Assembly: GCA_964403585.1 (NCBI GenBank)
Contig: CAYOFQ010000001.1
Location: 332,456 to 396,455 of the forward strand
Direction: 5' to 3'
DNA length: 64,000 bases
DNA from: an uncultured Gammaproteobacteria bacterium
Lineage (GTDB): Bacteria > Patescibacteriota > Microgenomatia > JALYQM01
The notes beneath the pieces are model-generated. The model ran no database searches. It was given only the letters and a program-made list of their open reading frames with translations, and had not been told where the DNA came from. The stretch's first letter is position 1, and every line of letters starts with the position of its first letter. Below, piece by piece: positions 22,757-54,276 of the stretch. The position numbers and the translations under genes were made by a program.

Positions 22757-22789
22757 TTATTATTCTCGATAATAAGGAGCACAAAACAT

Positions 22790-25700
22790 ATGGCCGACAT
22801 TTTAGATTTTGATGCAATACAGCTCTCAGTTGCCTCTCCTCAGACAATCAAAAACTGGTCTCATGGTGAAGTAACCAAACCTGAAACCATTAACTACCGT
22901 ACCCTTCGACCGGAAAAGAATGGATTGTTCTGTGAGAAGATTTTTGGTCCAACCAAGGACTGGGAATGTTATTGTGGTAAATATAAGCGAATTCGTTACA
23001 AGGGAATCATCTGCGATAAATGCGGAGTTGAAGTAACCCAGTCCAAAGTACGCCGTGAACGCATGGCGCATATTGGACTCGCCGCTCCGGTGGCTCATGC
23101 CTGGTTTATGCGTGGTACACCTTCAGTTCTGGCGTTGTTACTCGACCTTTCACCACGCAGCCTGGACGCAGTAATCTATTTCTCTTCCTATATCATCATT
23201 TCCGTAAATGAAGAGAAAAAAGCCGAAGTTGTTGAACAGCTTTCAGGCAAACTTGAATCCCGCCGTTCCGAACTGCGCGAAAAAACCGAAGAGCAGATCA
23301 CCAAACTCGAAGATGAATTAAAGGAACGATTGGCAGCCTTAAAGAGTGATGAACTCAAGAAAGAAGCCAAAGAACTTTCCAAAACCGAATTAGAGTTAAA
23401 GACCCGTCAAAAGGTACAGCAACTTCGAACTGAACTTGAAAAAGAAGAGGGTCGACTCGAAGAAGTATATAAGACCGTCAACGAAATGGTAAACACAGTC
23501 AAACCACACACCCTTTTGTCCGAAGACGAATATTACAAGCTCATGGAGTATGATGCCTCCGACTTCCTCGAAGTTGGCATGGGTGCTGAAGCAGTTCTCG
23601 ACATCCTTGGTCAGATCGATCTCGGTAAATTATCTGCTGAGCTCCGTGAAGAATCAAACAAGACTTCCGGTCAGCGACATATTAAAGCCGGCAAGCGGTT
23701 AAGAATCGTTGAAGGAATGCGCGCAGCGAAGATTGATCCACAGTGGATGATCCTGCAGGTACTTCCGGTTATTCCACCTGAGCTCCGCCCAATGGTGCAG
23801 CTCTCCGGAGGACGTTTTGCTACATCCGACTTAAACGATTTATATCGACGTGTTATCAACCGCAATAATCGCTTAAAGCGACTTATCGATCTTGGTGCAC
23901 CGTCAATCATTTTGCGCAACGAAAAGCGTATGTTACAGGAAGCTGTCGATGCACTTATCGATTCATCACGCAAAACAACTTCACGACTTTCAGCTCAGGC
24001 TGAAACAAAATCATTAACCGACATGTTACAGGGTAAACAGGGACGCTTCCGCCAGAACTTACTTGGTAAGCGCGTTGACTATTCCGGACGTTCGGTTATC
24101 GTTGTCGGTCCTGAATTGAAGCTTAATCAGATGGGCTTGCCAAAAGAAATGGCCCTCGAAATGTTTAAGCCGTTCGTATTACATGAACTCATTGTCCGCG
24201 GCTTTGCACCAAACGTAAAATCAGCTAAACACGTTTTAGAACGACGATCCGGCGAAGTCTGGGATATTCTTGAAGAAATCACCAAGAACCATCCGGTTCT
24301 ATTAAACCGTGCTCCGACGCTTCACAAGTTGGGTATCCAGGCATTCTTCCCGATCCTGGTTGAAGGAAACGCTATCAAGATTCACCCGTGTGTCTGTACC
24401 GGATACAACGCTGACTTCGACGGTGACCAGATGGCTGTACACATTCCGCTTTCTCAGAAAGCCCGCGATGAAGCCATTGAATTAATGCTTGCATCCAAGA
24501 ACTTGCTCTTACCATCAAACGGTACCCCGGTAACTTTGCCAAACCGCGAAATGTCGCTCGGTGCGTACTTCATGACGTATACAATGGAAGATCAGCCAAA
24601 AGATGACAAAGTTTTTGCCGATTTTGAAGAAGCTATTTACGCTAACCAGGTAGGTAAACTCGATTTACATACCATAATCAATGTCCGTAAAGAAGGTAAA
24701 TTAATGCAGACAACCGTCGGCCGCATTCTTTTCAATGAAGTCATGCCCGAGAATCTCGGTTTCGTAAACAAGCTTGTTGAAGGTAAATTAATCCGTACAC
24801 TTGTTACCCAGGCGTATGAAACCTGTGATAACGAAACAGTTCGTAAATTTATCGATGACCTGAAGACACTTGGATTTAAGTATGCAGACAAAGCCGGTAT
24901 TTCCATCGGTATAGTTGACTGTGTCATCCATCCTGATCGTGACCGAGTTATTGAAGAAGCCGACGAGCGCGTTGCTGAAATTGACGCATCATACAAGAAC
25001 GGTTTAATTACCCGCGACGAAATGCGCGCTATTTCCAACGATATTTGGATTGAAACAACTGAAAAAGTTCAGAAGATGACCTGGGATTACATGGAATTCC
25101 TTAATCCGTTAAAGATGGTTGTGGAAGCCGGAGCCCGTGGTTCTAAAGACCAGGTTAAACAGCTCCAGGGTATGCGCGGACTCGTTGCCGACCCTACCGG
25201 GCGTATCGTTGAACTGCCAACCAAGTCCAACTTCCGCAAAGGCTTGATGGTGTTCGAATACTTCACCTCGGCTCGTGGATCCCGAAAAGGGTTCGCTGAC
25301 CGCGCCTTGCGTACTTCAGCTTCCGGTTACTTGACCCGCCGCTTAGTCGACGTTGCTCATGACGTGATCATTCGCGAAATCGATTGCGGTGCTACAGTTG
25401 GATTCTCAGTAACCCGACAGGAATTTGGACGACATTTCAAAGAGCGATTGATCAGCCGGTATATGGCCGAGGACGTTCTTGATCCAAAATCAGGTAAAGT
25501 AATGGCAGCTGCCAACAGCTTAGTTGACGAAAAACTGGCCGACGAAATTGATGCAGCCGGTGTTGAAAAAGCCATGGTTCGCTCACCATTAACCTGCCAG
25601 ACCAAATTTGGTATGTGTCAGCATTGTTATGGCTGGGACATGTCCAGCAAGAAAGTTGTAACACTCGGTACACCGGTTGGTGTTATCGCCGCTCAGTCCA

Positions 25701-26485
25701 TTGGAGAACCGGGAACACAGCTCACGATGCGTACCTTCCATACCGGAGGTGTTATTGGTCTCGACATTACCCAGGGTCTTCCCCGTGTGGAAGAACTCGT
25801 GGAAGCACGTACACCAAAGAACCCGGTTCCAATCGCCGAAATCTCCGGTAAAGTTGAAATCTTTGAAACCGCCGATAATATTGTTATCCGTATCAAAGAT
25901 GAAAGTGCCAAGCCGGTTGAAGAACGCGAATACGTCTTACCGTTAACAGCCGACCTTAAAGTCGAAGACGGACAAATGGTAGGTGTTGGTACCGCGTTAA
26001 TGTCCGGTCACCTGGACATCAAGCAGATTCTTCAGGTACAGGGATTGCAGGCCGCTCAGAAATATCTCATTGCTCAGGCACAGGATGTGTATGAGTCACA
26101 GGGTATTCCAATTCATGACAAACACTTTGAAGTCATCGTTCGCAAGATGTGTGACAAAGTCAAAGTTGAAGCACAGGGCGATACGACACTCTTACCGGGC
26201 GAATTGGTTGAACGCGCACGCTATGAAGCCGAGAACGCTAAGGTTATTGCTGAAGGCGGTGAACCTGCATCAGCCCAGATCGTTATCTTGGGTATAACTA
26301 AAGCTTCACTCTATACCGATTCGTTCTTGTCAGCTGCTTCCTTCCAGGAAACCAAGAATGTCTTGACCGAAGCTGCCGTACTTGGTAAGGTTGACCACCT
26401 CGTTGGTTTGAAAGAAAACGTCATCATTGGTCGGTTAATTCCAACCAGCCCGGAACGTGCAACTGAAATGATGGGTGCTGAATAG
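22790..26485 (+). CDS. rpoC: DNA-directed RNA polymerase subunit beta'
   Basis: 1231 aa. N-terminal Zn-binding CxxC…CxxC, catalytic NADFDGDQMAVH, and the conserved trigger-loop region. RBS AAGGAG upstream. Confidence 0.97.
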   Translation: MADILDFDAIQLSVASPQTIKNWSHGEVTKPETINYRTLRPEKNGLFCEKIFGPTKDWECYCGKYKRIRYKGIICDKCGVEVTQSKVRRERMAHIGLAAPVAHAWFMRGTPSVLALLLDLSPRSLDAVIYFSSYIIISVNEEKKAEVVEQLSGKLESRRSELREKTEEQITKLEDELKERLAALKSDELKKEAKELSKTELELKTRQKVQQLRTELEKEEGRLEEVYKTVNEMVNTVKPHTLLSEDEYYKLMEYDASDFLEVGMGAEAVLDILGQIDLGKLSAELREESNKTSGQRHIKAGKRLRIVEGMRAAKIDPQWMILQVLPVIPPELRPMVQLSGGRFATSDLNDLYRRVINRNNRLKRLIDLGAPSIILRNEKRMLQEAVDALIDSSRKTTSRLSAQAETKSLTDMLQGKQGRFRQNLLGKRVDYSGRSVIVVGPELKLNQMGLPKEMALEMFKPFVLHELIVRGFAPNVKSAKHVLERRSGEVWDILEEITKNHPVLLNRAPTLHKLGIQAFFPILVEGNAIKIHPCVCTGYNADFDGDQMAVHIPLSQKARDEAIELMLASKNLLLPSNGTPVTLPNREMSLGAYFMTYTMEDQPKDDKVFADFEEAIYANQVGKLDLHTIINVRKEGKLMQTTVGRILFNEVMPENLGFVNKLVEGKLIRTLVTQAYETCDNETVRKFIDDLKTLGFKYADKAGISIGIVDCVIHPDRDRVIEEADERVAEIDASYKNGLITRDEMRAISNDIWIETTEKVQKMTWDYMEFLNPLKMVVEAGARGSKDQVKQLQGMRGLVADPTGRIVELPTKSNFRKGLMVFEYFTSARGSRKGFADRALRTSASGYLTRRLVDVAHDVIIREIDCGATVGFSVTRQEFGRHFKERLISRYMAEDVLDPKSGKVMAAANSLVDEKLADEIDAAGVEKAMVRSPLTCQTKFGMCQHCYGWDMSSKKVVTLGTPVGVIAAQSIGEPGTQLTMRTFHTGGVIGLDITQGLPRVEELVEARTPKNPVPIAEISGKVEIFETADNIVIRIKDESAKPVEEREYVLPLTADLKVEDGQMVGVGTALMSGHLDIKQILQVQGLQAAQKYLIAQAQDVYESQGIPIHDKHFEVIVRKMCDKVKVEAQGDTTLLPGELVERARYEAENAKVIAEGGEPASAQIVILGITKASLYTDSFLSAASFQETKNVLTEAAVLGKVDHLVGLKENVIIGRLIPTSPERATEMMGAE

Positions 26486-26504
26486 TTCAGACTGAATAAA
26501 CAAA

Positions 26505-26531
26505 GAAGGCCGCTTAACGCGGCTTTTTTTG
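26505..26531 (+). terminator. Rho-independent terminator after rpoC
   Basis: GCCGC-TTAA-GCGGC hairpin followed by TTTTTTT, 20 nt after the rpoC stop codon. Confidence 0.6.
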
Positions 26532-26584
26532 TGCGCGGTTATCCTATTGAATAGCTAATCCAATGGTACTTATACTAACAGTAG

Positions 26585-28894
26585 ATGAAAAAACACGCCA
26601 TCATTGCTCTTATAGGGTTTTTCGTTCTGACCTTTGCTTTATCCACCTATTCGTATTTCCAGAATACGGGATTGGTAGCAGAACAAATCGCCAAACAACG
26701 TTCTGCAGCCGCGGAGTCTGCTCCACAAATTTATTGGGGTGCCCGCATGGATGGCGAAGTATACGGCACGGGAGATGCTCCATGGGATGATACTACCTGG
26801 AATACTTTTGAACAGCATACCGGTAAAAAAGCGTCAATAATTCACTACGGTGTAACTTATCCTGCCTACTATAAAGACCATGTTTCAATGTACCAGAAGG
26901 TAAAAAGCCGTGGTGCAATCTCTCTCATTACCTGGAGCACTGCTAACCTCAAACTTAAGGATATTGCTAGTGGGCTACATGACGATTATTTTAAAGCATG
27001 GGGACAACAGGCCGCCGCATCAGGTATCCCAATGTTTGTCCGTTTGGACTGGGAAATGAATGGCGGATGGTACCCCTGGGCAACGACTCCTAACAATCAA
27101 TATGGAAACACGCCTGCAGATTATATTGCTATGTGGCGTCACATTCATGATGTTGTAGAAGGTGAAGGTGCTAAGAATATTACCTGGACCTGGTGCCCGA
27201 ATGTTAATTTTTCCGGTAGTACTCCGTTGAAAGATATTTATCCCGGAGATGCGTATGTTGACTGGACCTGTTTTGACGGCTATAATTTTTCCACACTTAA
27301 AGGGGTAAGTTGGCAGACTTTTAGTCAGGTAGTAAAGCCAACGTATGACCAGTTACTCCAGATAGCTCCATCAAAACCGATTATAATAGCTGAGTTTGGT
27401 TCTACCGAGTTGGGAGCTCCCTCCGGTACTTCCAAAGCCGCATGGATTACCGATGCCATTGCGACACAAATCCCAACTAATTTTCCTAAAATCAAAGGCA
27501 TCGTCTGGTTTAACTGGAATATTGTTGAAAACAATCAGCGTGCAGACTGGCAAATTGAATCTTCAACAAATTCACAAAACGCCTTTGCAGGTGCTATCGC
27601 CAGTCCGGTATACGCTGCCAATATCTTCTCAAATCTTGCTAATAACACCAAAGTTCAGCCGCTTGCAGCTCCCCTCAGTGCCACACCTACCCCTCAATCA
27701 ACCCTTGGTGCAACTGCAACGCCGCCGACAATTGCAACACCTACAGTCACCCCACTTGCTACAAAAACACCGACACCGGTACCAACTCCAACACCTGACC
27801 TGACCGCCCCGATCGTAGCAATTACCCAACCGCTTGCAGATGCGCAAGTAACTGCCAATGTTACCATTGCTGCCGATGTCAGCGACAACATCGGAGTAAC
27901 TAAGGTCGAGTTTTACATTGATGGAATTCTCAAGGGGACTGATACAAGCGTTCCATACAGTATTACTACCAATTCAACGACAATTACCAACGGGATCCAC
28001 ACGGTCGTGGCAAGGGGCTACGATGCTGCCGGCAATGCCGGTCGCGATACACTCCAAATTTCGATCAGCAACGGGGATACTACTCCACCAAGCACTCCGG
28101 CCAATCTTTCGGGTCAGGCAATCGATTATAAAACGATTAGCTTAACCTGGTCACCTTCAACTGATTCGAGCGGAATTGGCAGTTATTGGGTATTGCGCAA
28201 TAATGTTACTGTCGGTCAGGCATCATCAAATAGCTATACGGATCAGGGACTCCTTCCGGCAACGCAATACGCCTACCAGGTCATTGCGGTTGATACGGCA
28301 GGAAATAGCTCACCTGCTTCCGGAACATTTTCAATTGCAACCCCTGCACAACCTGATACTACTGCTCCGACTATTCCGACAAATGTAAGTGCCAAAGCCG
28401 TATCCTCATCTCAGATAAACCTCTCCTGGTCTGCATCAACCGATAATATCGGGTTAGCCGGCTACGATATTTACCGTAATGGCCAATATTATCGAACGGT
28501 AACAGCGTCAACTTCATTCGGCGACACCGGAGTAACTCCTTCGACACAATACTCGTACTATATTCGCGCTAAAGATACATCGAATAATCTTTCCGGCCAG
28601 TCCAATACTGCTTCGGCAACATCCTTGGCAGTAATAACAAATGGAAGAATCGTAGGGAACATCTATAATACATCGCTACGGGGAATACCCTATGCTAAGG
28701 CTATAATAACTATTGGGGGGAGTACTCAAACCGTCAGTGCCGATTCAAGCGGATACTATTCAATAGCTAACATTCCGCCGGGCACCTATTCGGTCACCTA
28801 CACGGCCAAAAGATATAAATCATTAACAGTATCGGTAGTTGTTCCAAATGGCGGAACCGCCAGTCAAAATATAACCTTGCAAAATCGAAAGTAA
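26585..28894 (+). CDS. Secreted multidomain glycoside hydrolase: GH26-like (beta-mannanase-type) catalytic domain, Pro/Thr linker, Ig-like domain, two fibronectin-III domains, and a C-terminal carboxypeptidase-regulatory-like beta-sandwich
   Basis: Signal peptide MKKHAIIALIGFFVLTFALS. GH26-like motifs FVRLDWEMNGGWYPW and IIAEFGS. PT-rich linker TPTPQSTLGATATPPTIATPTVTPLATKTPTPVPTPTP. Ig-like VEFYIDGILKGTDTSVPYS. FN3-like repeats (…LTWSPSTDSSGIGSYWV… and …LSWSASTDNIGLAGYDIYRNG…). C-terminal YSVTYTAKRYKS… beta-sandwich. Confidence 0.6.
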   Translation: MKKHAIIALIGFFVLTFALSTYSYFQNTGLVAEQIAKQRSAAAESAPQIYWGARMDGEVYGTGDAPWDDTTWNTFEQHTGKKASIIHYGVTYPAYYKDHVSMYQKVKSRGAISLITWSTANLKLKDIASGLHDDYFKAWGQQAAASGIPMFVRLDWEMNGGWYPWATTPNNQYGNTPADYIAMWRHIHDVVEGEGAKNITWTWCPNVNFSGSTPLKDIYPGDAYVDWTCFDGYNFSTLKGVSWQTFSQVVKPTYDQLLQIAPSKPIIIAEFGSTELGAPSGTSKAAWITDAIATQIPTNFPKIKGIVWFNWNIVENNQRADWQIESSTNSQNAFAGAIASPVYAANIFSNLANNTKVQPLAAPLSATPTPQSTLGATATPPTIATPTVTPLATKTPTPVPTPTPDLTAPIVAITQPLADAQVTANVTIAADVSDNIGVTKVEFYIDGILKGTDTSVPYSITTNSTTITNGIHTVVARGYDAAGNAGRDTLQISISNGDTTPPSTPANLSGQAIDYKTISLTWSPSTDSSGIGSYWVLRNNVTVGQASSNSYTDQGLLPATQYAYQVIAVDTAGNSSPASGTFSIATPAQPDTTAPTIPTNVSAKAVSSSQINLSWSASTDNIGLAGYDIYRNGQYYRTVTASTSFGDTGVTPSTQYSYYIRAKDTSNNLSGQSNTASATSLAVITNGRIVGNIYNTSLRGIPYAKAIITIGGSTQTVSADSSGYYSIANIPPGTYSVTYTAKRYKSLTVSVVVPNGGTASQNITLQNRK

Positions 28895-30172: not shown

Positions 30173-30826
30173 ATGGCCAAAATAGCACTTGTACATGGAT
30201 ACGGATCCGGATCGGTGAGTAAAATAATCAAGCGAAAACCTCAGGAGTATGCCGGTTTTTCGGCGTTTAAAGATGACGTTAATAATGGCACAGCTGCAGT
30301 CTTCAAATGGTACATCGAAACAGATTTTCCTAATCTTGAATATTTTTATCATGTTCCCAAACAGCTTCAAGTTTATCGTACCGAACAACAACTTGCCATC
30401 AGTCCTGAAATTCGCAATCGCTTTACAACCTTTCTGGGAACAGAAAAACCACAGATCGTGGTAGCTTTTTCCTTGGGAAGCATACTAAGCTTCTCTTACT
30501 TTGACCTCTATGGAGTACCAGATTATATTCACACGCTGGTTACGGTGCAGGCAGCACTGCCAAATAATTTTCAATTTTCCCATTCGCAGGTAAACCAACG
30601 ACTGGAAGAAAAAAGCCTGCGCTGGATAAATTATTATTGCCCCTGGGACATGCTCTTACCGTTCGTGATGGTTGTAGATAAAGCTATTCCTTCGGGATTA
30701 GCAGGATCTAAAAATAAATTTGCGCAGAACAAAATGTTTCCACTGCGTGGCAAATGGAATATCCATACCGGTAGCATTAGCGATCCGCTTTTTAGAGCAG
30801 AAGTAAATACATTACTCCGCCCGTGA
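30173..30826 (+). CDS. Hypothetical protein, possibly alpha/beta-hydrolase-like
   Basis: N-terminal IALVHGYGSGS resembles the beta1/oxyanion-loop region of alpha/beta hydrolases. No clear GxSxG nucleophile elbow was found. Weak call. Confidence 0.35.
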   Translation: MAKIALVHGYGSGSVSKIIKRKPQEYAGFSAFKDDVNNGTAAVFKWYIETDFPNLEYFYHVPKQLQVYRTEQQLAISPEIRNRFTTFLGTEKPQIVVAFSLGSILSFSYFDLYGVPDYIHTLVTVQAALPNNFQFSHSQVNQRLEEKSLRWINYYCPWDMLLPFVMVVDKAIPSGLAGSKNKFAQNKMFPLRGKWNIHTGSISDPLFRAEVNTLLRP

Positions 30827-31990
30827 AGTATACGGTAATTTTTCGCCGAAAATTAAATCACTCCAGCCGGTCTTATTAAGTACATATTCGACGTAGTTTG
30901 CTGAAATTGAACGGGTGTCCCGATTAAAATATTTGGTATGCGGCAGGGTATTTATTGAGTCACTGATTCCGGCACGATATCTGCAGGTGGCATAACGCCG
31001 CTGGTTGGAAGCTCTTCTTCGTTCGGTTAATGTATGTTTTGCGCGTGCTACAACTTCCCGCATAACCTCAATCGAATCACCACTAATAATCGCCGGCTCC
31101 TGCATCGCCACACCAATTTGTACTGCAAACAGCGGGATCCGGGGAAGCTTTATCAAGCTTGCTTCATCGGCAGCAAAGAATTCCGGGTCAGAAATGCGGA
31201 TCTGATGCTGGCCCTGCTCCAATTCAAATGGCTGCCAGATAGTATGCGAGATATCACCATTACGATCAATAAAACCTTCGTACATCGGGTAGCCGGCAAC
31301 TGTCGAGTAGCAGGGAACAAAGCGCCGGATCATTTCCTGATGAAAGTTACCCTCAGAAGAAATATGATGGATATCTATTGAATGTGTTTCTTTTTGGTAA
31401 TACTTAAAAAACATCTTTAAGTACGAGGGAAACCACGGCGACTGTGACCACTCATAGCGAACCCGGGTATATTTGCTCGCACTATACCGGTTGTGCCAGG
31501 GAGCTTTACCACGCAAATAAGTTTCATGGCTGAACGGTATCGCGTCTTCTTCGAGTAGTTGCATGGCCGAACCTTCAACCACCCGCCGAAACATCTCTTC
31601 AGTTGGCAGCGCGACACAGATATCCGCATCGTTTTCATAAACATTATGTGTCCCGGTATAGTGTCCGTCATTCCACATAAACGGAATTCCGCTAAAACGG
31701 AAACCGGCTGAACCGTTAATAAAAATCCGTGCCTGAGTAAAATATTCACCTTCAGACGGTGGCAGTACGCGGAGCAATGAACGGGTCATATACGTAAATA
31801 ATCTGTCCTGATCAATAGAGGGAAAGGGGAGCGAATCACAAAACGTTACCCGCAATAACCTGCGCAGAGGATTGTCCTGGTATTCATAAATCCAGCCATG
31901 TCCATCATTTTCGACAAAGTTGGTACGACGATACTGGCCGTTGAAAGTCTTGAGGGCAGTAACTGGTACAAATTCCTCAGATTCAATCAT
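30812..31990 (-). CDS. Hypothetical protein (392 aa) co-transcribed with the upstream atypical regulator. Possible nucleotidyltransferase-fold signature (GSAGF…ENDADICV).
   Basis: Its start overlaps the upstream gene's stop by ATGA. No family recognised. The GS…DxD spacing is longer than canonical pol-beta NTases, so this is only a hint. Confidence 0.45.
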   Translation of the reverse strand: MIESEEFVPVTALKTFNGQYRRTNFVENDGHGWIYEYQDNPLRRLLRVTFCDSLPFPSIDQDRLFTYMTRSLLRVLPPSEGEYFTQARIFINGSAGFRFSGIPFMWNDGHYTGTHNVYENDADICVALPTEEMFRRVVEGSAMQLLEEDAIPFSHETYLRGKAPWHNRYSASKYTRVRYEWSQSPWFPSYLKMFFKYYQKETHSIDIHHISSEGNFHQEMIRRFVPCYSTVAGYPMYEGFIDRNGDISHTIWQPFELEQGQHQIRISDPEFFAADEASLIKLPRIPLFAVQIGVAMQEPAIISGDSIEVMREVVARAKHTLTERRRASNQRRYATCRYRAGISDSINTLPHTKYFNRDTRSISANYVEYVLNKTGWSDLIFGEKLPYTSRAE

Positions 31991-33147
31991 GATAGTCTTA
32001 GTAACTGATAACCAAAGTTTTTAATTGTCAGTAATTTATAATGGCCTGAGTCAAGCTTTTTTCGTAGCCGACTGATTGCCTGATCGAGCGCCCATGGTGA
32101 ATATTTTTCGCTTGTTTCATCCCCCCATAGCGCGTGGGCCACACTTTCGCGCGAAACTGCCGTATCCATGTGCTGTTGCAATAAATATAACAACCGGACA
32201 TCCTGCGCTGTGGGCATTCCTTTTAACTGAATTGAACCTAAAATTGTTGAATGAGGCTCGGTTTGATCGAGAAATCGTGCCGCTGTATCGGTGAACAGCT
32301 GCGCGGAAATTAATGATTTTAACCGGCTTTTCTCTTGCTTAAGCGTTTTAATAACGCGGGATACATACGGTATCGACACAAATTCTTCTGCCATAAATTC
32401 GGAATGAAAGTTCTGTATCGATAAGTAACTTTTAAATAGTCCGGCAATTCCACCCGTCTCCAGGCTAAGTTGTTCAGGGAGAAATCTCTTCGGCAGTGAC
32501 TCTCCCCGCAGTGACAAAAAGCGGGCAATACTATAAGCAGTCTCTGTTTCGTTGAAGGTCGGATAATAGCAAACATTGGTGAACATGCTACTTGAAGCAT
32601 GCCCGGGTGAATACGAGTGTAAAAGTGTTGAATCGCAACTCCAGAGTAGGGTAATCGGGTAATTAGAAGCGGATTTACCCATTTGCACAAACGTCCGATC
32701 AATTTCCTGTAAAAAAGGCAAAAATTTGTAATTAAGCGTAATAATAAAGTACAGCTCATTGGTCCGGGTTATTTGTTGAACTGAATCCAGAATGACTTTC
32801 GAAAGCAAAAAAGAATCACGGGAAACCAGTGCCGCGTTGGCCACTTCGTGTGACTCGCTGTGAATATATTTAATCAATGAATATAGGATTTCACTGAGAA
32901 ACGATTCATAGGTATCATCAACCTTCTCGCTGTCCAGAAATATTAGGCACTTAGAGGCCTGTAACAGGTCCAGTTCCTGCAAAAGTGCTCGTTCGTTACT
33001 GAGAAAACGGAGATTGTTAGTTCTTCCTGAATGGGGGAGAGCGATTAGTGTCCCCGACTGCCTCTTTTTCAGTAAGCTGAAAATCTTGGAAAATCGGCCC
33101 GCCAGGCTTTCCTTAGGAAGCGGGTTGTAGTAGTCTTTTTTTCTCAT
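31987..33147 (-). CDS. Atypical transcriptional regulator: N-terminal ~270-aa domain of unknown type (degenerate P-loop-like PHSGRTNN) plus a C-terminal OmpR/PhoB-type winged-helix DNA-binding domain
   Basis: The C-terminus TAQDVRLLYLLQQHMDTAVSRESVAHALWGDETSEKYSPWALDQAISRLRKKLDSGHYKLLTIKNFGYQL matches the trans_reg_C consensus (LT..E..lL……v.sre.L….W…….vd..i.rLRkKl…….I.t.rg.GY.l). There is no receiver domain and no Asp-phosphorylation motifs. Confidence 0.55.
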   Translation of the reverse strand: MRKKDYYNPLPKESLAGRFSKIFSLLKKRQSGTLIALPHSGRTNNLRFLSNERALLQELDLLQASKCLIFLDSEKVDDTYESFLSEILYSLIKYIHSESHEVANAALVSRDSFLLSKVILDSVQQITRTNELYFIITLNYKFLPFLQEIDRTFVQMGKSASNYPITLLWSCDSTLLHSYSPGHASSSMFTNVCYYPTFNETETAYSIARFLSLRGESLPKRFLPEQLSLETGGIAGLFKSYLSIQNFHSEFMAEEFVSIPYVSRVIKTLKQEKSRLKSLISAQLFTDTAARFLDQTEPHSTILGSIQLKGMPTAQDVRLLYLLQQHMDTAVSRESVAHALWGDETSEKYSPWALDQAISRLRKKLDSGHYKLLTIKNFGYQLLRLS

Positions 33148-33299
33148 GGCGTAACTAATCCCTTTATAAAGCCAAATTATACTAAATATTACGAGAAGGT
33201 CAAATTATGTCAGGTACAGTCAGGTTGACGTTCGCTGCGGCTCAAGCATGACAGTCGCTTTCCCGCTATTATTCCCCGTATCAAAAGCAAAGGAGAGCT

Positions 33300-33638
33300 A
33301 TGGAAAAAATATCACAGCCAAATGAACTACCAAGACCATCAGGTATAACCCGCCATCAGGTACGGGCTCTGGGTCGATGTCTGGCCGCAGTAGATTTAGT
33401 ACTTCTTCTCGCAGGGTGTGGCAATCGCACCGGAAACATCGACTGTTATCAGTTGTCGGCAGACTACAAAGTGCCCATGTCCGACGCGAATCCGACATAT
33501 AACTTCACCAGAAAATGGCGAAAGTGCGTCGATGATGGTGCCCCGGCACCAGTCTGTGACCGGGACAATTGGGACGTCCTCCATGGCTCCACCACGCTTG
33601 TTCCTGAAACGTGTACGGCCGAAAAGGAAGGAGAGTAA
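33300..33638 (+). CDS. Small Cys-rich lipoprotein
   Basis: Signal peptide with lipobox LLLAGC. Four further Cys in the mature part. Located in the locally GC-elevated segment. Divergent from the regulator operon. Confidence 0.45.
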   Translation: MEKISQPNELPRPSGITRHQVRALGRCLAAVDLVLLLAGCGNRTGNIDCYQLSADYKVPMSDANPTYNFTRKWRKCVDDGAPAPVCDRDNWDVLHGSTTLVPETCTAEKEGE

Positions 33639-33640
33639 GT

Positions 33641-35275
33641 ATGCACTTGAATGAATCCTGGAAACCGCTGGAAGATCAGGAAGGTAAGGTTCAGCGCGCG
33701 TATCGCCGCGTCGAACGGCTGACCGGGTTGAATCACGATCAACTCTGCATGCTGGCCATTCACCGGGTAATTACTCCTGCTCTGGTCGCAACCATTGCGC
33801 AGCGGGACTTGGCGCTTGAAAGTAAAGACAGCGCTGCAGCATACGTCACCGAAAAAGTTACCAAAGAAGAACTCCCGTTCACCGTCATCCAGCATATTGT
33901 CCCTGAGGGTAGGTTCCGCAGGCGTGCGTATGATCAAATGGTGGTGTTCAAAAACCCTGAAGTAGATCCTGAAATCCACAAAGCACGCGGAATATATTTA
34001 CTGTTAATGAAATGGCTCGAACAAACCGATCTGGCCAAAAAGCAGGATTTTACTTTCGCCACGAGAGACTATGTTCCGGTAACCAGGTTATGGGGGTGGC
34101 ATCAACTAACCGGCAGGGATTTGGAAATGATTCCCCGAACAATTGCCTTACATCCCCACGCCCGAGAGTACGTTCTACGCGATGTACCCCGGGAACGCTT
34201 AATTGGTCTCCATGCGAATGCGTTACTTCTGTACGATTATCTCGGCTTTGAAGACTGGTTCTCACGAAATTTGTACTCAAAAATAAAATATGATGCAACC
34301 AGCATTGTCGAAAAAGCCTACCATTTTTACTGTATGCAGATGCTTCTCAACGGTGTCGATGTGTCGAATCTCTACCGTGGACAGGTCGAGCCACCGGACG
34401 AAATTAAAGCTGAGACGTACGCATTTGTCAGGCAAATGGTTTCACAACGAACCGGCGACCAGGCTCTGGTTTCGACTTTATTGAATAGCCAGCTCTCATT
34501 TAATTTTATCGATCACAGCCTTCACCCCGGCGATCCGGATATCCAGTTTATAGATACCATGATGGAAAATGAAGGTGTACTCTTTGGTCGTCCACATCCA
34601 ACCCGGGAACGACAGATTGTGGGAAAAAGCAATCTCCCGGAAATACCCAATTTGTACGTACAAGGAGGGATTGATGTTATCTCATGTAGCCTGCGCGACG
34701 AAGACATACTGGAAGCGTTTATTCACCAACTGTACCGTGAAGATCAAACAAAAATTGCCAAAGGAGTGGTTTTACTTTCCGACGGGCGACCCACCCAATT
34801 CCGAACTTCCCATGGACTGAATATTCAGTTACGCAATCATGAATATGAGCGTGATCCCATTGCTGTTATCGAAGACAATAAGGGTAAGGTTTCTATATTC
34901 AGAACCAGAGGAATACGAATAAGCGAAACCAGACGAATTTATGACTGGCATCCAATTGGAACATTGGAAATTGCTGTGGAGCGTGAGGAACAAAGTGAAA
35001 GCAATCAGCTGGGAACAAAGGTAAAAGTAACCTATGTGCCCGAGCCGCGACAAAAAGTGTATATTACGAACGATGCCATGACCGTCCATAAAGGTGGGCA
35101 ATACGGCCAGCAGGAAACAGAAGCATCTATCCTTATTGGGTCTGAAGATGAAGGAAATATCGTTATCTCATCAGGGAGATATTACCCGGTGCATGCTAAC
35201 CCGTACAATGCCCGCAAGCGCAAAAGCCGTCTGGAGCTGTATGATCCGTGGGTTCAGGAAGCAAGTGTACTATAG
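33641..35275 (+). CDS. Hypothetical protein (544 aa), no recognisable family
   Basis: ATG at 33641 preceded by AAGGAAGGAGAG. Sits immediately after the lipoprotein stop and 78 bp upstream of the ABC-type ATPase fusion gene. GC about 50%, against about 44% for the bulk of the window. Confidence 0.5.
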   Translation: MHLNESWKPLEDQEGKVQRAYRRVERLTGLNHDQLCMLAIHRVITPALVATIAQRDLALESKDSAAAYVTEKVTKEELPFTVIQHIVPEGRFRRRAYDQMVVFKNPEVDPEIHKARGIYLLLMKWLEQTDLAKKQDFTFATRDYVPVTRLWGWHQLTGRDLEMIPRTIALHPHAREYVLRDVPRERLIGLHANALLLYDYLGFEDWFSRNLYSKIKYDATSIVEKAYHFYCMQMLLNGVDVSNLYRGQVEPPDEIKAETYAFVRQMVSQRTGDQALVSTLLNSQLSFNFIDHSLHPGDPDIQFIDTMMENEGVLFGRPHPTRERQIVGKSNLPEIPNLYVQGGIDVISCSLRDEDILEAFIHQLYREDQTKIAKGVVLLSDGRPTQFRTSHGLNIQLRNHEYERDPIAVIEDNKGKVSIFRTRGIRISETRRIYDWHPIGTLEIAVEREEQSESNQLGTKVKVTYVPEPRQKVYITNDAMTVHKGGQYGQQETEASILIGSEDEGNIVISSGRYYPVHANPYNARKRKSRLELYDPWVQEASVL

Positions 35276-35353
35276 ATCTCTATAGAAAATAATGGTAAAG
35301 ACTAGAGTCGAAGGATTGACAATAGTGTCCTATAAGAATAGAATTGGCAGATT

Positions 35354-37264
35354 ATGGGTCTACCTGAAGTTAATACTACGTCACTACAAGTTGGTGAAAA
35401 ACAGCCTAAAGAAAGCCTAAAAGTGAGGCCTTTACAAAGGTTAAGACGTCTTGGGGATAATCTCCTCTATAGAGTCGACGAATTGATTGTAGGCGAATAC
35501 CAACCCGCCGCGCGGGTACTTATGGAAGTTGGCGGGGATGAAAAAACAGCTCGTGGCATCGCGCTCAGGAGAATTGTTCAAGCTGGTGCTATTGGCGCAC
35601 AAGTAACAGGCTCTACTTTTGCTACAGCACAACTATTAGCTGGAGGTGAATTGAGTCATATTTATGCATCACTCGGTGTTGGTGCACAGGTCCTTGGCAG
35701 ACTTGTAGACTTGCGGATAACTAACCGTAATGGTGTCGAATGGCAGCATACGTTAGATACGATGGTTATGCGACATTCAGATAAATTCCCAGCAATAACG
35801 GAGTTATTAAAGAGCGAAGGTATAAATAGTGAAGAAATTGGCGCATTTAATCAGTTAAGTGGCAGAATATATAATGCCGAGCTAAACAGTCCGCGTTTGA
35901 AAAATATTCAAACAACGGTAACACCTACTCTTATTGCTGGTATAATTTATCCCCATGCAAACGAAGTTCTTACAGGAATCTTTGCTTCAGCTGCGGTAGC
36001 ATCATATTGGATAAGCAGAACAGCGTACAACTCCATGAGCATCGTAAGAGCTGCCGCTACTCGCGCAGCCCGAAGCGCTAAAGCAAGTGAGTGGTTGAGA
36101 GACTTATTAGAAGACCATTTAAGTGATGTGTTTAAGTTAAATTTAATCTCTCAGACTCCTACAATTGCTACTATTATTGCCTTACTAAGCACATCTAAGG
36201 AATATGCAGCGGGGCTGATATTTGCTACAACTTCCAGCCTTTCTGGGTTGGTAAATACCTTAACCACTAAACGAGCCGCTGTTGAAGCACATCGCGCAAC
36301 AGAAATAATTTCAGGACTCGGTAACGTAATGAAAAGCGAAGCACTCCTCCTAACAGACGATAACTGGAATGCATTTTTGCATGACCATCCTTCAGTCGAG
36401 TATGAAGAGCGAGTAAGCTTTGAAAAAGGCATGATATTACAAAATATAACCTCTCAATTGCCGGATGGAACCGCTACTGATATAAAAGACCTGTCTCTAG
36501 ATATTCGATCAGGAGAAGTTACGGTTATTAAAGCGGCTTCTGGCAAAGGAAAATCCCAATTTTGGTTAGGTCCTCGACATATAACTCGGTTCTTGGGAGA
36601 GTCATATATCGTAGAAAATGGTAAGGTTGTTAATAGTAAATCACTGCCTCACAGAAGTGATATAAAAAATCATTTACAAATATTCAGCATTGGCTTAGTA
36701 AATCCAAAACACGAATTGGTGGATATTTTCAATCCAATCTTCAAAATAATTGATACCACCGATTACGGAATTAAGGAAAAAGATCAAGCTAGATGGAACG
36801 ATATTAAAGACATCGAGGATAGTTTATTACGCGGCGATATTGCTAAGAGAGAAGCAGGGAAAAGAAACTATCTAAATGGAGCGTTCCTCGAAGCCTCAAA
36901 AGTATATCGTGAGAAACGCCTAAATTGGGTTTATGCACTTTTACAGGAAAGTCAGGGAAACTTAAATATTGCAGGAATGCATGGAAACCGAGTATTTGGT
37001 CAAGACTCTCTTTCTGATGGACAACGTCAACGAATAGTCATGCTGCTTGCGCTTCAAATAGTAAAATATATGCCAAATCTCAAAACAATAATCCTAGATG
37101 AACCTTTTGATAAGTTAGATAAAGATTTAAATCTCGAACTTCAATTCGCTATACTAGAACAGATACAAAATACTCCAAACGGTCCGGGTATTGTCGTAAT
37201 ATCCCACCCCTATGCGGAAAGTCTTCAGAACAGGTTTGGTGCTAAGTTAATAGATCTGGATTAA
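35354..37264 (+). CDS. ABC-type ATPase with an unusual ~380-aa N-terminal domain (a few hydrophobic helices, not a canonical 6-TM exporter domain)
   Basis: Walker A IKAASGKGKSQ, ABC signature LSDGQRQRI, Walker B/D-loop TIILDEPFDKLD, H-loop VISHP. N-terminal hydrophobic stretches TLIAGIIYPHANEVLTGIFASAAVASYWI and TIATIIALLSTSKEYAAGLIFATTSSLSGLV. Confidence 0.6.
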   Translation: MGLPEVNTTSLQVGEKQPKESLKVRPLQRLRRLGDNLLYRVDELIVGEYQPAARVLMEVGGDEKTARGIALRRIVQAGAIGAQVTGSTFATAQLLAGGELSHIYASLGVGAQVLGRLVDLRITNRNGVEWQHTLDTMVMRHSDKFPAITELLKSEGINSEEIGAFNQLSGRIYNAELNSPRLKNIQTTVTPTLIAGIIYPHANEVLTGIFASAAVASYWISRTAYNSMSIVRAAATRAARSAKASEWLRDLLEDHLSDVFKLNLISQTPTIATIIALLSTSKEYAAGLIFATTSSLSGLVNTLTTKRAAVEAHRATEIISGLGNVMKSEALLLTDDNWNAFLHDHPSVEYEERVSFEKGMILQNITSQLPDGTATDIKDLSLDIRSGEVTVIKAASGKGKSQFWLGPRHITRFLGESYIVENGKVVNSKSLPHRSDIKNHLQIFSIGLVNPKHELVDIFNPIFKIIDTTDYGIKEKDQARWNDIKDIEDSLLRGDIAKREAGKRNYLNGAFLEASKVYREKRLNWVYALLQESQGNLNIAGMHGNRVFGQDSLSDGQRQRIVMLLALQIVKYMPNLKTIILDEPFDKLDKDLNLELQFAILEQIQNTPNGPGIVVISHPYAESLQNRFGAKLIDLD

Positions 37265-37268: not shown

Positions 37269-38747
37269 TTAAGTATATTTTTCGCGCACATATCCCAACC
37301 AATACGTAGCATTCAGCTCTTCACCGGTAACTTTCTTCATAAGCTCTTTTGGCTGATAAATTGACCCGTATTGATACATATGCTCAGTAAGCCATGTGAG
37401 GATCTTCTTGCTATTACCTGATCTGAGAGTAGTTTTCCAATCCGGATCAGAGTCAGTATACGCATGCCAAATTTGGGCAGCACCTAGATTGCCCAGAGTA
37501 TAGGTTGGGAAGTAGCCAATTGAGCCGTGTGACCAGTGAATGTCCTGCAGCACGCCCAGCGCATCATTTGGTACTTCGATACCAAGGTATTCTTTATATT
37601 TTGCATTCCATGCTTCCGGTAGTTCAGCAATTGTAATCGAATCTTCCATTAACGCTTTCTCAATCTCAAACCGGATTAAAATATGCAGATTATACGTAAC
37701 TTCATCAGCTTCAACCCGAATGAAACTCGGTTCAACTTTATGAATTCTTAAATAGAAGTCATCAAGTGAAATATCTTTCATTTGGACAGGAAAAGCAGCT
37801 TGTAGTTCGGGATAAAAATTTTCCCAGAACTCATAGCGGCTGCCAATCATACATTCCCAGAATTTTGACTGACTCTCATGAATCCCCAGCGATACTCCTG
37901 TATCTAAGGCCGAACGTGCTATTTTCTCTGATATCCCTTGTTCATACAAACCGTGGCCGCCTTCATGCAAAGCTGAAAAAATAAAGTCAATATAATTCGG
38001 TTTGTAACGATTGGTGACACGCCGGTCATTATGTCCCATCGCTTCGGTAAACGGATGGGGAGATTTATCCTCACGTCCACGGTTAAAGTCATAGCCGATT
38101 TTTTCCAGTACCCGCCGGGAAAAATTCATTTGCTCACGTTCATCAAAGGGAGTATGAAAATCAAAATCGGCATTCCATTTCTCCTTGGCTTTTTGCAAAA
38201 TACCAATCAGCGGTTCTTTTAGTCGCACAAACATTTTCTCAACATCATCACTGGTTAGTCCTTCTTCGTATAAGTCTAAAAGTGCATCATAACGATGTTT
38301 CTCATATCCGAGATACTCTGTCTGTTGTTTCGTCATCTCCACAACTTTAGCTAAAAGCGGCGCAAAAATAGCGAAGTCTGATTTTTGTCGGGCCTCTGCC
38401 CATGCTTGAACAGATTGCGAGGTAAGTTTCGTGAACTCGGCGACAAAAGCTTCCGGCAATTTTGTGGACTGTTCGTATGATCGCTTCATCACCCGTACCA
38501 GTGCGCGGTCTTCGACACTAAGTACAGATTCCTGTTCAGCCTGGTGTAATAGTTCACCGAGTTCCTTGGCAGTTTCTTTCTGATGAATAATTGTCGACAA
38601 GGTCGACAGTTGGTACGCCCGGTCGGGAGCTGCTCCACGAGGCATATGTACTTCCTGATCCCACGCGAGAAGTTGCATAATTGAACGGAGATCAAAAATT
38701 TCAGCAGACAGTTGTTTCAGTTTTTCTATTGTGTTCGTCATATACAT
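37269..38747 (-). CDS. Carboxypeptidase Taq-type metallopeptidase (MEROPS M32)
   Basis: Zinc-binding HEGGHGLYEQG (HExxH), plus DIHWSHG and GYFPTYTLGN motifs conserved in M32. Start at an internal Met; the track ORF starts at 38831. Confidence 0.8.
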   Translation of the reverse strand: MYMTNTIEKLKQLSAEIFDLRSIMQLLAWDQEVHMPRGAAPDRAYQLSTLSTIIHQKETAKELGELLHQAEQESVLSVEDRALVRVMKRSYEQSTKLPEAFVAEFTKLTSQSVQAWAEARQKSDFAIFAPLLAKVVEMTKQQTEYLGYEKHRYDALLDLYEEGLTSDDVEKMFVRLKEPLIGILQKAKEKWNADFDFHTPFDEREQMNFSRRVLEKIGYDFNRGREDKSPHPFTEAMGHNDRRVTNRYKPNYIDFIFSALHEGGHGLYEQGISEKIARSALDTGVSLGIHESQSKFWECMIGSRYEFWENFYPELQAAFPVQMKDISLDDFYLRIHKVEPSFIRVEADEVTYNLHILIRFEIEKALMEDSITIAELPEAWNAKYKEYLGIEVPNDALGVLQDIHWSHGSIGYFPTYTLGNLGAAQIWHAYTDSDPDWKTTLRSGNSKKILTWLTEHMYQYGSIYQPKELMKKVTGEELNATYWLGYVREKYT

Positions 38748-38756
38748 AATTATACC

Positions 38757-39086
38757 ATGAAAGTGTGCTATGAAAGAGAAAATGTATTTTTTACGCTCAA
38801 AATTCCGGACTTTCTTTTTACCGTAATCCAACTGTTACTTGTCAGTCGGTTTGTTGCTCGTGTATTCAAACTTCTGGCCAATTCGACATTCATGCAATGG
38901 CTGTACGACAGTACCAATTTTCTCACGTTTCCTTTGGGAGTAGTGTTACGCCGTTATTTTGTCGAAGGAAGTCTCGTGTATGAAACATTTCTTATCGGTG
39001 CCGGGATCATCTATGTAGTGCTCTACTTAGTTATTTTGGATTTTCTGAAAATTCTGTTTAATGAGAAAGACGATGACGATCTTTAG
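38757..39086 (+). CDS. Small hypothetical membrane protein (possibly YggT-like); start uncertain
   Basis: ORF with two hydrophobic helices and an acidic C-terminus. Its 5' end lies too close to the divergent M32 gene start for the full track ORF (38712) to be correct. Confidence 0.25.
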   Translation: MKVCYERENVFFTLKIPDFLFTVIQLLLVSRFVARVFKLLANSTFMQWLYDSTNFLTFPLGVVLRRYFVEGSLVYETFLIGAGIIYVVLYLVILDFLKILFNEKDDDDL

Positions 39087-39652
39087 CGCTTGGATACAAA
39101 GGGACTATTCTTAATATAAAAACGCAACGGCTTCTCTGCGGCTTTAACAATCCCGATACGATTTGTAGTAACAATTGCCTCGGGGGGTATTACCGGAGCA
39201 TCTTCAATAACAAGGTTCCCGTCCGTGATATCCTTGCCATTCATTTCAGGCGTAATACCCATCGCCATCACCAGTTTCGCCGGGCCGCTGCACAGTGCCA
39301 GCGTGTTATCAGTTTTCCGCCGCTGACACATGAGATCAACGCCTTTCGTCGGTTCGAGTGCCCGAATAAGCACCGCCTCACCGGGTAGAGTTACGACATT
39401 AAAGCAATAATATTTTCCGTAAATAAAGTAAATATACGCATGTCCCGCTTCTCCGAACATCACCTTATTTCGTGAAGTTATTCCCTTAAAGGCCTGGTTC
39501 GCCGGATCTTCAGCTATATAAGCCTCGGTTTCGACAATTCGCCCTGAAACGACTCCCTGAGGTGACGAGTAAACAAGAATCTTCCCAAGCAGCGCTTGAG
39601 CTACAATCACGGTGTCTCTTGTATAAAAATCCCTTAATAAAGGCATAAACAT
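39083..39652 (-). CDS. mpg: DNA-3-methyladenine glycosylase (Mpg/AAG family)
   Basis: LLGKILV…GRIVETEAYIAEDPANQAFKGITSRNKVMFGEAGHAYIYFIYG matches the conserved AAG-family core. Confidence 0.85.
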   Translation of the reverse strand: MFMPLLRDFYTRDTVIVAQALLGKILVYSSPQGVVSGRIVETEAYIAEDPANQAFKGITSRNKVMFGEAGHAYIYFIYGKYYCFNVVTLPGEAVLIRALEPTKGVDLMCQRRKTDNTLALCSGPAKLVMAMGITPEMNGKDITDGNLVIEDAPVIPPEAIVTTNRIGIVKAAEKPLRFYIKNSPFVSKR

Positions 39653-39729
39653 GCTAATATAAAAACATAGTCCTCTTTAAAAATCCCGGCTTATATGATA
39701 TACTAAACCAAGGTTAAGAATGCCTGGCT

Positions 39730-41786: not shown

Positions 41787-41880
41787 AAAAGAGTCTTCCT
41801 TTCGTCAAAAGTGGCGTACCAAAAGCTTATACTAACTATATCACAAAAAGTGCTAGTAAAAAATATGTTAAAATTAATTA

Positions 41881-53649: not shown

Positions 53650-54276
53650 TTTGGTTTCAAAACCGGCATCAATTTTTTTGCGCAAATAGCCGATATAGAC
53701 ATCGACAACACGGGTCTCAACATCCGGAGAAGACATCCAAAGCCGATTGAGAATCATATCCCGGGTCAGTACGCGGCCTTTATTCATAATCAGATAATGA
53801 AGTAACTTAAATTCTTGAGCAGTGAGATCTATCTGTTCTGTCCCCCGGGTCACTTCATGCGTTTGCAAATTCATAACTAAATCATCCACGCGCAATACCG
53901 AATCTTCGTCCTCGCTATATCGCAAACGGGCATTAACCCGGGCTAAAAATTCATCAGCCACAAACGGCTTAGTTATATAATCGTCGGCACCGAGCTGAAG
54001 TCCGTTAATGATGTCTACAATATTGTGTTTAGCCGAAAGAATAATTACGCGCAAATGCGGGTGTTTTTTTCTGATTTCCAGACAAACAGACTCTCCGGAA
54101 ATATCAGGGAGACCGAGGTCGAGAATTACTAAATCCGGCTTGGCGGTATCTATTCTTTTGAGACCTTCAGTGCCGCGGGATACCACATCTACAGAGTATC
54201 CGTTATCGAGAAGTAAATCCCGTAGATATCCCTGAATTCCCGGATCATCTTCAATAACTAACAATGATTTGTTCAT
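53596..54276 (-). CDS. OmpR-family two-component response regulator
   Basis: Receiver LLVIEDDPGIQ…DLVILDLGLPDISG…K. C-terminal trans_reg_C LTAQEFKLLHYLIMNKGRVLTRDMILNRLW…YIGYLRKKID…IKSIRGFGYML. Confidence 0.85.
   Translation of the reverse strand: MNKSLLVIEDDPGIQGYLRDLLLDNGYSVDVVSRGTEGLKRIDTAKPDLVILDLGLPDISGESVCLEIRKKHPHLRVIILSAKHNIVDIINGLQLGADDYITKPFVADEFLARVNARLRYSEDEDSVLRVDDLVMNLQTHEVTRGTEQIDLTAQEFKLLHYLIMNKGRVLTRDMILNRLWMSSPDVETRVVDVYIGYLRKKIDAGFETKLIKSIRGFGYMLREPAL

Follow-up and report, generated by a model that had tools for sequence, protein, structure and literature searches.

Transcription factors of the OmpR/PhoB type classically occupy tandem units of one orientation, spaced 10–11 bp apart and reaching the −35 element, as in the pho boxes and the OmpR sites F1–F3. 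Patescibacteria, or the candidate phyla radiation (CPR), have small genomes with few recognisable regulators, and we know of almost no transcription factor from them that has been characterised experimentally. Regulators of the SARP/AfsR type bind direct repeats that overlap the −35 element (PMC10936776). Here we examine a regulator gene and its promoter in 64,000 nt of contig CAYOFQ010000001.1 (forward-strand positions 332,456 to 396,455; hereafter the window, numbered from its first letter), deposited as an uncultured Gammaproteobacteria bacterium and placed by its GTDB lineage in the Patescibacteriota. The gene (31987..33147, minus strand; ATG start, 386 aa) encodes, by open reading frame (ORF) analysis, domain searches and a structural model, an AAA+/STAND-like module with the features of a pseudo-nucleoside triphosphatase (pseudo-NTPase) followed by an OmpR/PhoB winged helix. 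We computed its architecture and fold class, the loss of its catalytic residues, the conservation of its nucleotide pocket, a conserved promoter repeat array and a conserved coupled gene pair. The reading we prefer, with a probability of roughly 60%, is that the protein is a one-component autoregulator: its OmpR-type winged helices would occupy the five units of the array as a head-to-tail oligomer, and the pseudo-NTPase would serve oligomerisation and gating.

The only part of the chain that known families recognised was the C-terminus. Trans_reg_C (PF00486) matched aa 313–382 (E=1.2e-10; 41.7 bits against the Pfam cutoff of 26.2), whereas the first ~300 residues had no Pfam match; NCBIfam models reached the protein solely through its C-terminal ~70 residues, and the PDB matches found with phmmer were OmpR-family DNA-binding domains only (CpxR, PhoB, ToxR). 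An AlphaFold2 (AF2) model built on an alignment of N-domain homologues (mean predicted local distance difference test, pLDDT, 92.4; predicted TM-score, pTM, 0.80) divided the chain into three. The first part is a P-loop NTPase-like alpha/beta base at aa ~30–195 (32563..33060, minus strand; strands 32–36, 66–71, 131–138, 165–172 and 192–195), seen also in a profile alignment to the structure 2qby_A. The second is a helical lid-like domain at aa ~200–295 (32263..32550, minus strand) with invariant E202 and R209 and the motif T-G-G-I-A-G (aa 231–236). The third is the winged helix at aa 301–384 (31996..32247, minus strand), supported by Pfam, model and alignment, in which a small beta-sheet (strands 301–303 and 306–308), a three-helix core (314–325, 333–348 and 351–364) and a C-terminal hairpin wing (370–375 and 379–384) are all present. 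Its recognition helix, YSPWALDQAISRLRKKL, bears the hallmark [KQ]YSDWAID[KQ] of the family described below, with YSDWAID reading YSPWALD in the window. Pfam gave no BTAD match at E≤1 and, the DNA-binding domain being C-terminal, the protein is not of the SARP type; nor is it of the ToxR/CadC type, as we found no transmembrane-like segment (maximum 19-residue Kyte-Doolittle mean 1.19). The winged helix closes the chain (aa 386); C-terminal sensor repeats (TPR, WD40 or LRR) were not found.

The regulator belongs to an unannotated family of Patescibacteria. When 5.8 billion protein clusters were searched by word index, a single homologue emerged (P0001; 35% identity, full length), and an exhaustive phmmer search with aa 1–306 against 1.84 billion representatives (E≤1e-3) gave 32 proteins, mostly of 340–440 aa. 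Every one of the 28 full-length N-domain homologues (alignment A1) carried a C-terminal Trans_reg_C, so the domain fusion that the preliminary description proposed to look for in other genomes does recur. With the C-terminal hallmark [KQE][YA]S[DE]WA[IL]D[KQ] as seed, we scanned genomes, one for each species, and found 80 loci (numbered L001 onwards below), nearly all in metagenome-assembled genomes (MAGs) of Patescibacteria: Amesbacteria, Woesebacteria, Roizmanbacteria, Gottesmanbacteria, Shapirobacteria, Levybacteria, Dojkabacteria, Saccharibacteria, Paceibacterota and others. These loci hold 86 ORFs with the winged helix, most of them 360–467 aa long, and the N-domain profile matched 62 at E<1e-5. 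The near-invariance of the hallmark among loci selected by it is circular, but the hallmark is also at least 90% conserved in A1, an alignment seeded by the N-domain only. Several genomes carry two or three paralogues: a single MAG accounts for L008, L022 and L056, and L009, L010, L036 and L078 hold two apiece. Many family contigs (L003, L007, L009, L013, L017, L039, L045 and others) bear the titles 'uncultured Gammaproteobacteria', 'Clostridia', 'Bathyarchaeia' or 'Methanofastidiosum', which probably reflects placeholder taxonomy or bin contamination and not true occurrence outside the CPR. Public names of the members are 'hypothetical protein' or 'OmpR/PhoB-type domain-containing protein', and the combination of a pseudo-NTPase with a C-terminal OmpR winged helix was not described in the literature we searched, the coverage of which was incomplete and does not prove absence.

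Upstream of the gene, sequence inspection identified a sigma-70-like promoter (33176..33203, minus strand) in which TTGACC (−35) and TATAAT (−10) are separated by 16 nt and agree with the consensus at 11 of 12 positions. Running into it are five phased direct repeats (33199..33245, minus strand; spacing 11, 11, 10 and 10 bp), identified by repeat search and an alignment of 11 promoters, which we predict to be the regulator's site: TTGAG (unit 1, 33245-33241), CGAAC (unit 2, 33234-33230), CTGAC (unit 3, 33223-33219), CTGAC (unit 4, 33213-33209) and TTGAC (unit 5, 33203-33199), the last being part of the −35 box. The pattern TGAC-N5-7-TGAC-N5-7-TGAC occurs a single time in the 64-kb window, both strands counted together, and lies at this promoter, against 0.04 occurrences expected from shuffles, and [CT]TGAC pairs at 10–11 bp spacing were found nowhere else in the window, which therefore offers no other target. 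The same triple is present once per locus in L001–L004, 58–73 nt upstream of the regulator start, and in five of six independently fetched metagenomic loci of the clade it again occurs once each, always at the regulator promoter, the sixth copy being slightly degenerate.

Alignment of all 11 clade loci with readable promoters showed five units in each, with start-to-start spacing of exactly 11, 11, 10 and 10 bp and the consensus TTGAC, CAGAC, CTGAC, CTGAC and TTGAC for units 1 to 5. Units 4 and 5 were invariant at all five core positions in 11/11 promoters, and in every promoter unit 5 is the −35 hexamer, followed after 16–18 nt by a TAnAAT −10 element. Because the regulators of these loci are merely 30–40% identical, a degree of divergence at which neutral intergenic DNA would be randomised, the architecture of the array is under selection. 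Outside the clade, eight distant paralogues (L023, L024, L034, L037, L051, L069, L072 and L080) have TGAC triples at their own promoters. More generally, 9 of the 81 regions upstream of regulators contain chains of at least three identical 5-mers at 10–11 bp, compared with 6 of the 571 upstream regions that served as controls in the same loci (Fisher p=1.2e-5), and several of the control positives are the same arrays viewed from the divergent side. Neither the array nor the extent of the family and its near-restriction to Patescibacteria had figured in the preliminary description.

Other repeats were noted at family promoters. L006 (about 3200-3280) and L008 (about 5960-5995) have no TGAC array, but in each another motif occurs twice, with a spacing of 11 bp, shortly before the start codon (ACCTAAG in L006 and [A/G]TTCTAAGG in L008), hinting at diverged specificity with the same site geometry. 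TGAC triples also lie near family genes but away from the regulator start, in L007 (6335-6358, between the regulator and the next ORF), L011 (4910-4935, minus strand), L069 (3286-3309), L071 (3308-3331) and L079 (2934-2958, right after the partner gene), and these are possible further promoters of a regulon. In the window itself, a 13-nt direct repeat, ATAATTTG[A/G]C[C/T]TT, with 28-bp spacing (33168-33208, minus strand) overlaps both promoter hexamers; the homologous promoters do not show it, and this window-specific repeat is probably no more than a by-product of the −35/−10 region. An attempt to correlate recognition-helix residues with the repeat motif was uninformative, as the helix is nearly invariant and the loci had been chosen by that motif.

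Since the layout of the array is typical of OmpR/PhoB sites, it argues, by analogy, for oligomeric autoregulation by the adjacent regulator. In the mechanism that we propose, the C-terminal winged helix would recognise [C/T]TGAC-type direct repeats, five of which cover the promoter driving the regulator and its coupled partner gene from about −80 down to its −35 hexamer, and several protomers would be arranged head to tail along the same face of the DNA, in the manner of OmpR and PhoB at tandem sites. The AAA+/STAND-type module (base and lid), without hydrolysing NTP, would govern assembly and activity in place of a phospho-receiver; its P-loop pocket may be a binding switch for a nucleotide or other phosphate-bearing ligand, or a fixed oligomerisation scaffold, and the logic would be akin to that by which the nucleotide-binding oligomerisation domain (NOD) of AfsR or MalT gates an attached DNA-binding domain. 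Because unit 5 is a near-consensus −35 element with a good −10, its occupancy should compete with sigma region 4, and we lean, at odds of roughly three to two, towards a regulator that represses its own promoter by shutting sigma out, with activation through sigma contacts in the manner of PhoB or the SARPs as the other possibility. It is by inference that we assign the array to this regulator and propose how many protomers bind, what kind of ligand is sensed and whether the promoter is repressed or activated. A broader and more doubtful version, which we offer tentatively, is that Patescibacteria possess a family of their own of 'mini-STAND/ORC-like' transcription factors that have lost hydrolysis and, with about five protomers head to tail, form a filament of fixed register on the five phased units, an ORC/DnaA-style nucleoprotein complex turned into a promoter switch, each paralogue controlling its own hypervariable orphan partner; if true, this would amount to a lineage-specific regulatory or host-interaction system in organisms poor in regulators.

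Several points weigh against the autoregulatory reading. In the window's own copy of the array, both distal units are degenerate, and the 11 aligned loci are orthologous, so that their conservation reveals selection on the promoter and not which factor reads the array. The repeat unit, moreover, resembles the sigma-70 −35 consensus, and part of the signal could reflect RNA polymerase. The case for nucleotide or ligand binding is an argument from conservation; the whole-chain TM-scores of the fold comparison described below are modest (0.3–0.46), which is attributable to differing domain orientation; and the partner gene has no assigned function, nor, as a consequence, has the biological output of the circuit.

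The orthology of the promoters and the overlap of [C/T]TGAC with the −35 consensus TTGACA also favour another explanation, that the array is read by RNA polymerase, sigma or some other factor and that the regulator, whose binding to the array is a prediction, has its targets elsewhere and is not autoregulatory. However, only unit 5 has a correctly spaced −10 element, whereas units 2 to 4 (CAGAC, CTGAC) are conserved at fixed helical phasing without any promoter partner. Tandem units at 10–11 bp are the hallmark of OmpR/PhoB sites, and distant paralogues with the same recognition-helix hallmark have TGAC arrays at their own promoters. We therefore consider a different reader of the array rather unlikely.

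The autoregulatory reading places a second gene under the same promoter. The partner (30812..31990, minus strand; ORF analysis and searches) encodes a soluble protein of 392 aa, and the translational coupling that the preliminary description had noted could be read directly in the sequence as an ATGA stop/start overlap with the regulator (31987..31990, minus strand; '...cta tcA TGA ttg...'); this 4-nt overlap recurs at 7/7 further clade loci with a readable junction. The gene next after the regulator is a homologue of the partner in four loci: L001 (25% identity, E=1e-26), L002 and, with weaker similarity, L003 and L004. G109, D121-x-D123, P185, P269, R284 and R332 are invariant across the syntenic homologues, and in every further clade locus the regulator is followed by a Pfam-less gene of 335–423 aa. 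The partner had no match in Pfam, PDB, PADLOC or PHROG, and five syntenic homologues gave nothing significant in Pfam scans or a PDB profile search; homology searches found only the partner itself and one syntenic relative, and an AF2 model from the two-sequence alignment was unusable (pLDDT 38.5). Assignment to the Pol-beta nucleotidyltransferases from the motif G[GS] ... DxD is not claimed, as the motif stood by itself with no match to a nucleotidyltransferase (NTase) family. Across the wider family, a downstream ORF is tightly coupled to the regulator in 42 of 82 cases, and all ten of the ORFs sampled lacked a Pfam domain. The downstream partners cluster only inside regulator subfamilies; remote homology between clusters of different subfamilies, that of the window's partner included, was sought and rejected, all hhalign probabilities being below 2%. 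In these comparisons the regulator is the conserved element and the partners are fast-evolving, lineage-specific soluble orphans.

Such partners, which lack Pfam domains and differ between regulator subfamilies, would also suit a conflict or defence module in which a STAND-like sensor with a DNA-binding head monitors foreign DNA or a phage cue and controls, or works with, a diversifying orphan effector. The STAND-like N-domain, the several paralogues in some genomes and the partner's invariant DxD after a G[GS] turn, loosely recalling Pol-beta nucleotidyltransferase effectors, point the same way. However, the turn and the DxD are ~22 aa apart versus the usual 9–13, no NTase family matches, the regulator and the partners have no PADLOC match and no meaningful PHROG match, and the C-terminal sensor repeats are absent. 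The surroundings are of the housekeeping kind: in L001, L082 and L084 the pair lies in conserved synteny with infB (IF-2) and an oppositely oriented gene of ~320 aa, joined in L001 by nusA; the window does not share this synteny. Finally, the window's sole array is at the regulator's own promoter, as is typical of an autoregulated transcription factor. A defence role thus seems distinctly unlikely, and the autoregulatory reading remains the one we favour.

What the N-domain is bears on how such an autoregulator would be gated. The N-domain profile alone matched the AAA+ domain of Sulfolobus solfataricus Orc1/Cdc6 (2qby_A) with E=1.2e-5, in a register that places 'aLPhtgrs' on 'GLTGTGKT', 'lvliltl' on 'VVIVLDE' and 'FPlFskeE' on 'FPPYNAEE'. 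When the model was compared with the PDB by Foldseek, the matches were, in order, ORC4, ORC5, archaeal Orc1/Cdc6 (entries 2qby_A, 2qby_B, 2v1u_A and 1fnn_A), the STAND protein CED-4, and then RuvB and p97, all with probability 1.0 and with alignments of ~400 columns across all three domains. The P-loop lies between strand 1 and helix 1 and is followed by a helical lid, as in AAA+/STAND proteins, and the order of base, lid and C-terminal winged helix is that of Orc1/Cdc6. Relatives with canonical Walker motifs matched Pfam families of this class: L057 matched NPHP3_N (E=2.2e-7; 31.7 bits versus 24.8), KAP_NTPase (21 versus 20) and NACHT (E=7.6e-4), L015 matched KAP_NTPase (23.1 versus a cutoff of 20) together with nSTAND6, ATPase_2 and AAA_22, and L030 matched NPHP3_N, ATPase_2 and RecA-like_ORC2. 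The window's regulator itself had no match to a STAND-family hidden Markov model, so that its Pfam link to STAND is transitive, through L057 and L015. Because the profile match, the Foldseek order and the STAND matches of relatives agree, assignment of the N-domain (aa ~30–295) to the ORC/Cdc6-STAND neighbourhood of AAA+-class P-loop NTPases is supported by both profile and model. The preliminary description had guessed at a degenerate NTPase/STAND-like module and proposed AlphaFold and profile searches to decide between AAA+/STAND, a pseudo-receiver and a new domain; both now point to the first, with a module of ~295 aa.

The catalytic residues of this fold are missing from the regulator. Its Walker A segment (33019..33042, minus strand), A36-L-P-H-S-G41-R42-T43, corresponds position by position to 'GLTGTGKT' in Orc1/Cdc6 of S. 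solfataricus, with Arg42 at the position of the Lys, and so departs from the canonical GxxxxGK[ST]; the Arg for Lys substitution noticed in the preliminary description is therefore borne out by the alignment and is accompanied by loss of the Walker B acidic pair. In the same register, and by column counts, the Walker B Asp-Glu positions are Thr137-Leu138 (32734..32739, minus strand) in a stretch Y-F-I-I-T137-L138 where hhhhD[DE] would be expected, and the sensor-1 Asn position is D172. Among 89 non-identical family sequences, Arg takes the place of the Walker A Lys in 46, and Lys is kept in 19; at the Walker B Asp position an acidic residue (D or E) stands in 19, the Asp being retained in the relatives L005, L042 and P0018, for example. 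Both GK[ST] and an acidic Walker B were present in 5/89 sequences, and GR[ST] without an acidic Walker B in 19/89, the latter constituting the window's clade. The family thus grades from NTPases that look competent to sites that are dead, with the window's regulator at the dead end.

Despite these losses, aa 36–47 form the most conserved 12-residue segment of the N-domain within the clade (0.83 versus a mean of 0.48; rank 1 of 289), and the lid motif T-G-G-I-A-G is on a par with it (0.85). The P-loop pocket is under the strongest purifying selection in the N-domain. Changes of the Walker A Lys to Arg typically spare binding and abolish hydrolysis. Because the degenerate P-loop is still the most conserved segment of the N-domain, we read it as a binding switch and not as an enzyme: it may be a non-hydrolysing site for a nucleotide or other phosphate-bearing ligand, although a structural latch or a fixed oligomerisation scaffold would also account for its conservation. 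The earlier suggestion of a ligand- or nucleotide-gated one-component regulator is strengthened by this conservation and remains a suggestion.

The retained P-loop glycine and Thr43, the high conservation of the loop and the fully canonical motifs of some relatives might instead be taken to mean that the regulator is an active NTPase, an ATP-hydrolysing remodeller or switch in which Arg42 stands in for the Walker A Lys. With both Walker B carboxylates gone and Asp at the sensor-1 Asn position, and given the general effect of a Walker A Arg on hydrolysis, we regard this as very unlikely. The three-domain layout of Orc1/Cdc6 and the five repeats of one orientation would likewise fit an initiator-like or iteron-binding factor that remodels DNA on repeats in replication or partition. 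That role is highly improbable, however, as the array lies within a well-formed −35/−10 promoter directly upstream of the regulator gene, the ATPase is dead, some genomes have several paralogues and the winged helix is of the OmpR type found in transcription factors; an AT-rich unwinding element was not noted, though no specific search for one was made.

Absence of a receiver domain was the remaining claim of the preliminary description, which held that a canonical receiver fold would overturn its proposal; the fold we found is a P-loop alpha/beta domain with a lid. Response_reg gave no match to the regulator even at E≤1, whereas a response regulator in the same window (53596-54276) scored E=4.7e-28 for Response_reg and E=5.8e-26 for Trans_reg_C; because this control receiver was found easily, we conclude that the missing receiver is real. 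An atypical OmpR-family response regulator with a pseudo-receiver, for which the C-terminal position of the winged helix is the sole argument, is effectively refuted by this control, by the length (~295 aa) of an N-region whose P-loop follows strand 1 and which includes a helical lid, and by best Foldseek matches that are ORC, Cdc6 and CED-4 and not CheY-like.

The regulator promoter faces a divergent set of genes (33300-37264, plus strand), which shares with it the 152-bp intergenic region containing the array and could therefore be co-regulated through it; the set is not conserved beside regulator homologues. It includes an ORF of 112 aa with a lipobox-like LLLAGC (33300-33638, plus strand), a Pfam-less ORF of ~544–554 aa (33611-35275, plus strand) and a 636-aa protein with a weak, split ABC-type ATPase domain (ABC_tran 23.5 bits, below cutoff; PADLOC mad3 E=1.3e-5). 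Elsewhere in the window, a two-component pair consists of a GAF-HisKA-HATPase_c kinase (51336-52499, plus strand) and the REC and Trans_reg_C regulator used as the control above (minus strand), with a Pfam-less ORF of 382 aa (52501-53649, plus strand) between them. The surroundings (19310-28894 and 37269-43491) contain rpoB, rpoC, an M32 carboxypeptidase, a methylpurine-DNA glycosylase, a GT4 glycosyltransferase, an alpha-amylase and a 769-aa secreted-type protein with GH26, Big_7, fn3 and CarboxypepD_reg domains, and no tRNA genes were found in the 64 kb. These neighbours indicate an ordinary chromosomal setting and not an island.

These results assign a fold to a formerly unannotated N-domain of ~300 residues and show the gradient from canonical to dead NTPases within what is apparently a widespread, unannotated regulator family of a poorly understood radiation. 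They also yield a precise predicted operator of 47 bp, with five units at 11/11/10/10 bp, that is directly testable without culturing the organism. As a natural example of a pseudo-ATPase input that would replace the phospho-receiver on an OmpR-type output domain, the regulator is relevant to the evolution of signalling architectures and to how STAND/AAA+ switches act after hydrolysis has been lost.

In comparison with known systems, the regulator shares with the OmpR/PhoB response regulators a Trans_reg_C DNA-binding domain at the C-terminus and a predicted site made of tandem direct repeats, phased at 10–11 bp, that reach or overlap the −35 element. Unlike them, it has a P-loop NTPase-like module of ~295 aa and neither a receiver nor a phospho-acceptor Asp, which makes histidine-kinase input impossible, and in its recognition helix lies the family-specific motif YSDWAID, which reads YSPWALD in the window protein. 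AfsR and the SARP-LAL proteins of Streptomyces likewise join an OmpR-type winged helix to a STAND-class NOD on one polypeptide, but their DNA-binding domain is N-terminal, the reverse of the order here, and they belong to the Actinomycetota and not to the Patescibacteria; at 386 aa versus roughly 1000, the regulator is also far shorter, lacks the BTAD and the TPR sensor domain, and has lost its catalytic residues. Archaeal Orc1/Cdc6 is the best match by both profile and fold, with the identical order of AAA+ base, lid and winged helix, and both proteins are associated with repeated DNA elements. In contrast to Orc1/Cdc6, however, the regulator has a Trans_reg_C and not a Cdc6_C winged helix, its Walker A and B motifs are degenerate, and its setting is a bacterial promoter, which makes a role in replication unlikely. 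MalT and related LAL STAND activators resemble it in that a STAND module controls a C-terminal DNA-binding domain and in self-associating on arrays of promoter sites, whereas MalT has a LuxR-type helix-turn-helix, a large SUPR/TPR sensor and an active ATP-dependent switch, all three of which the regulator lacks. By analogy, then, the regulator would be OmpR/PhoB-like at the level of DNA, STAND-gated in the manner of AfsR and MalT at the level of input, and Orc1/Cdc6-like in layout. We regard it not as categorically new but as a minimal, hydrolysis-dead form of the NTPase-domain-gated one-component factor.

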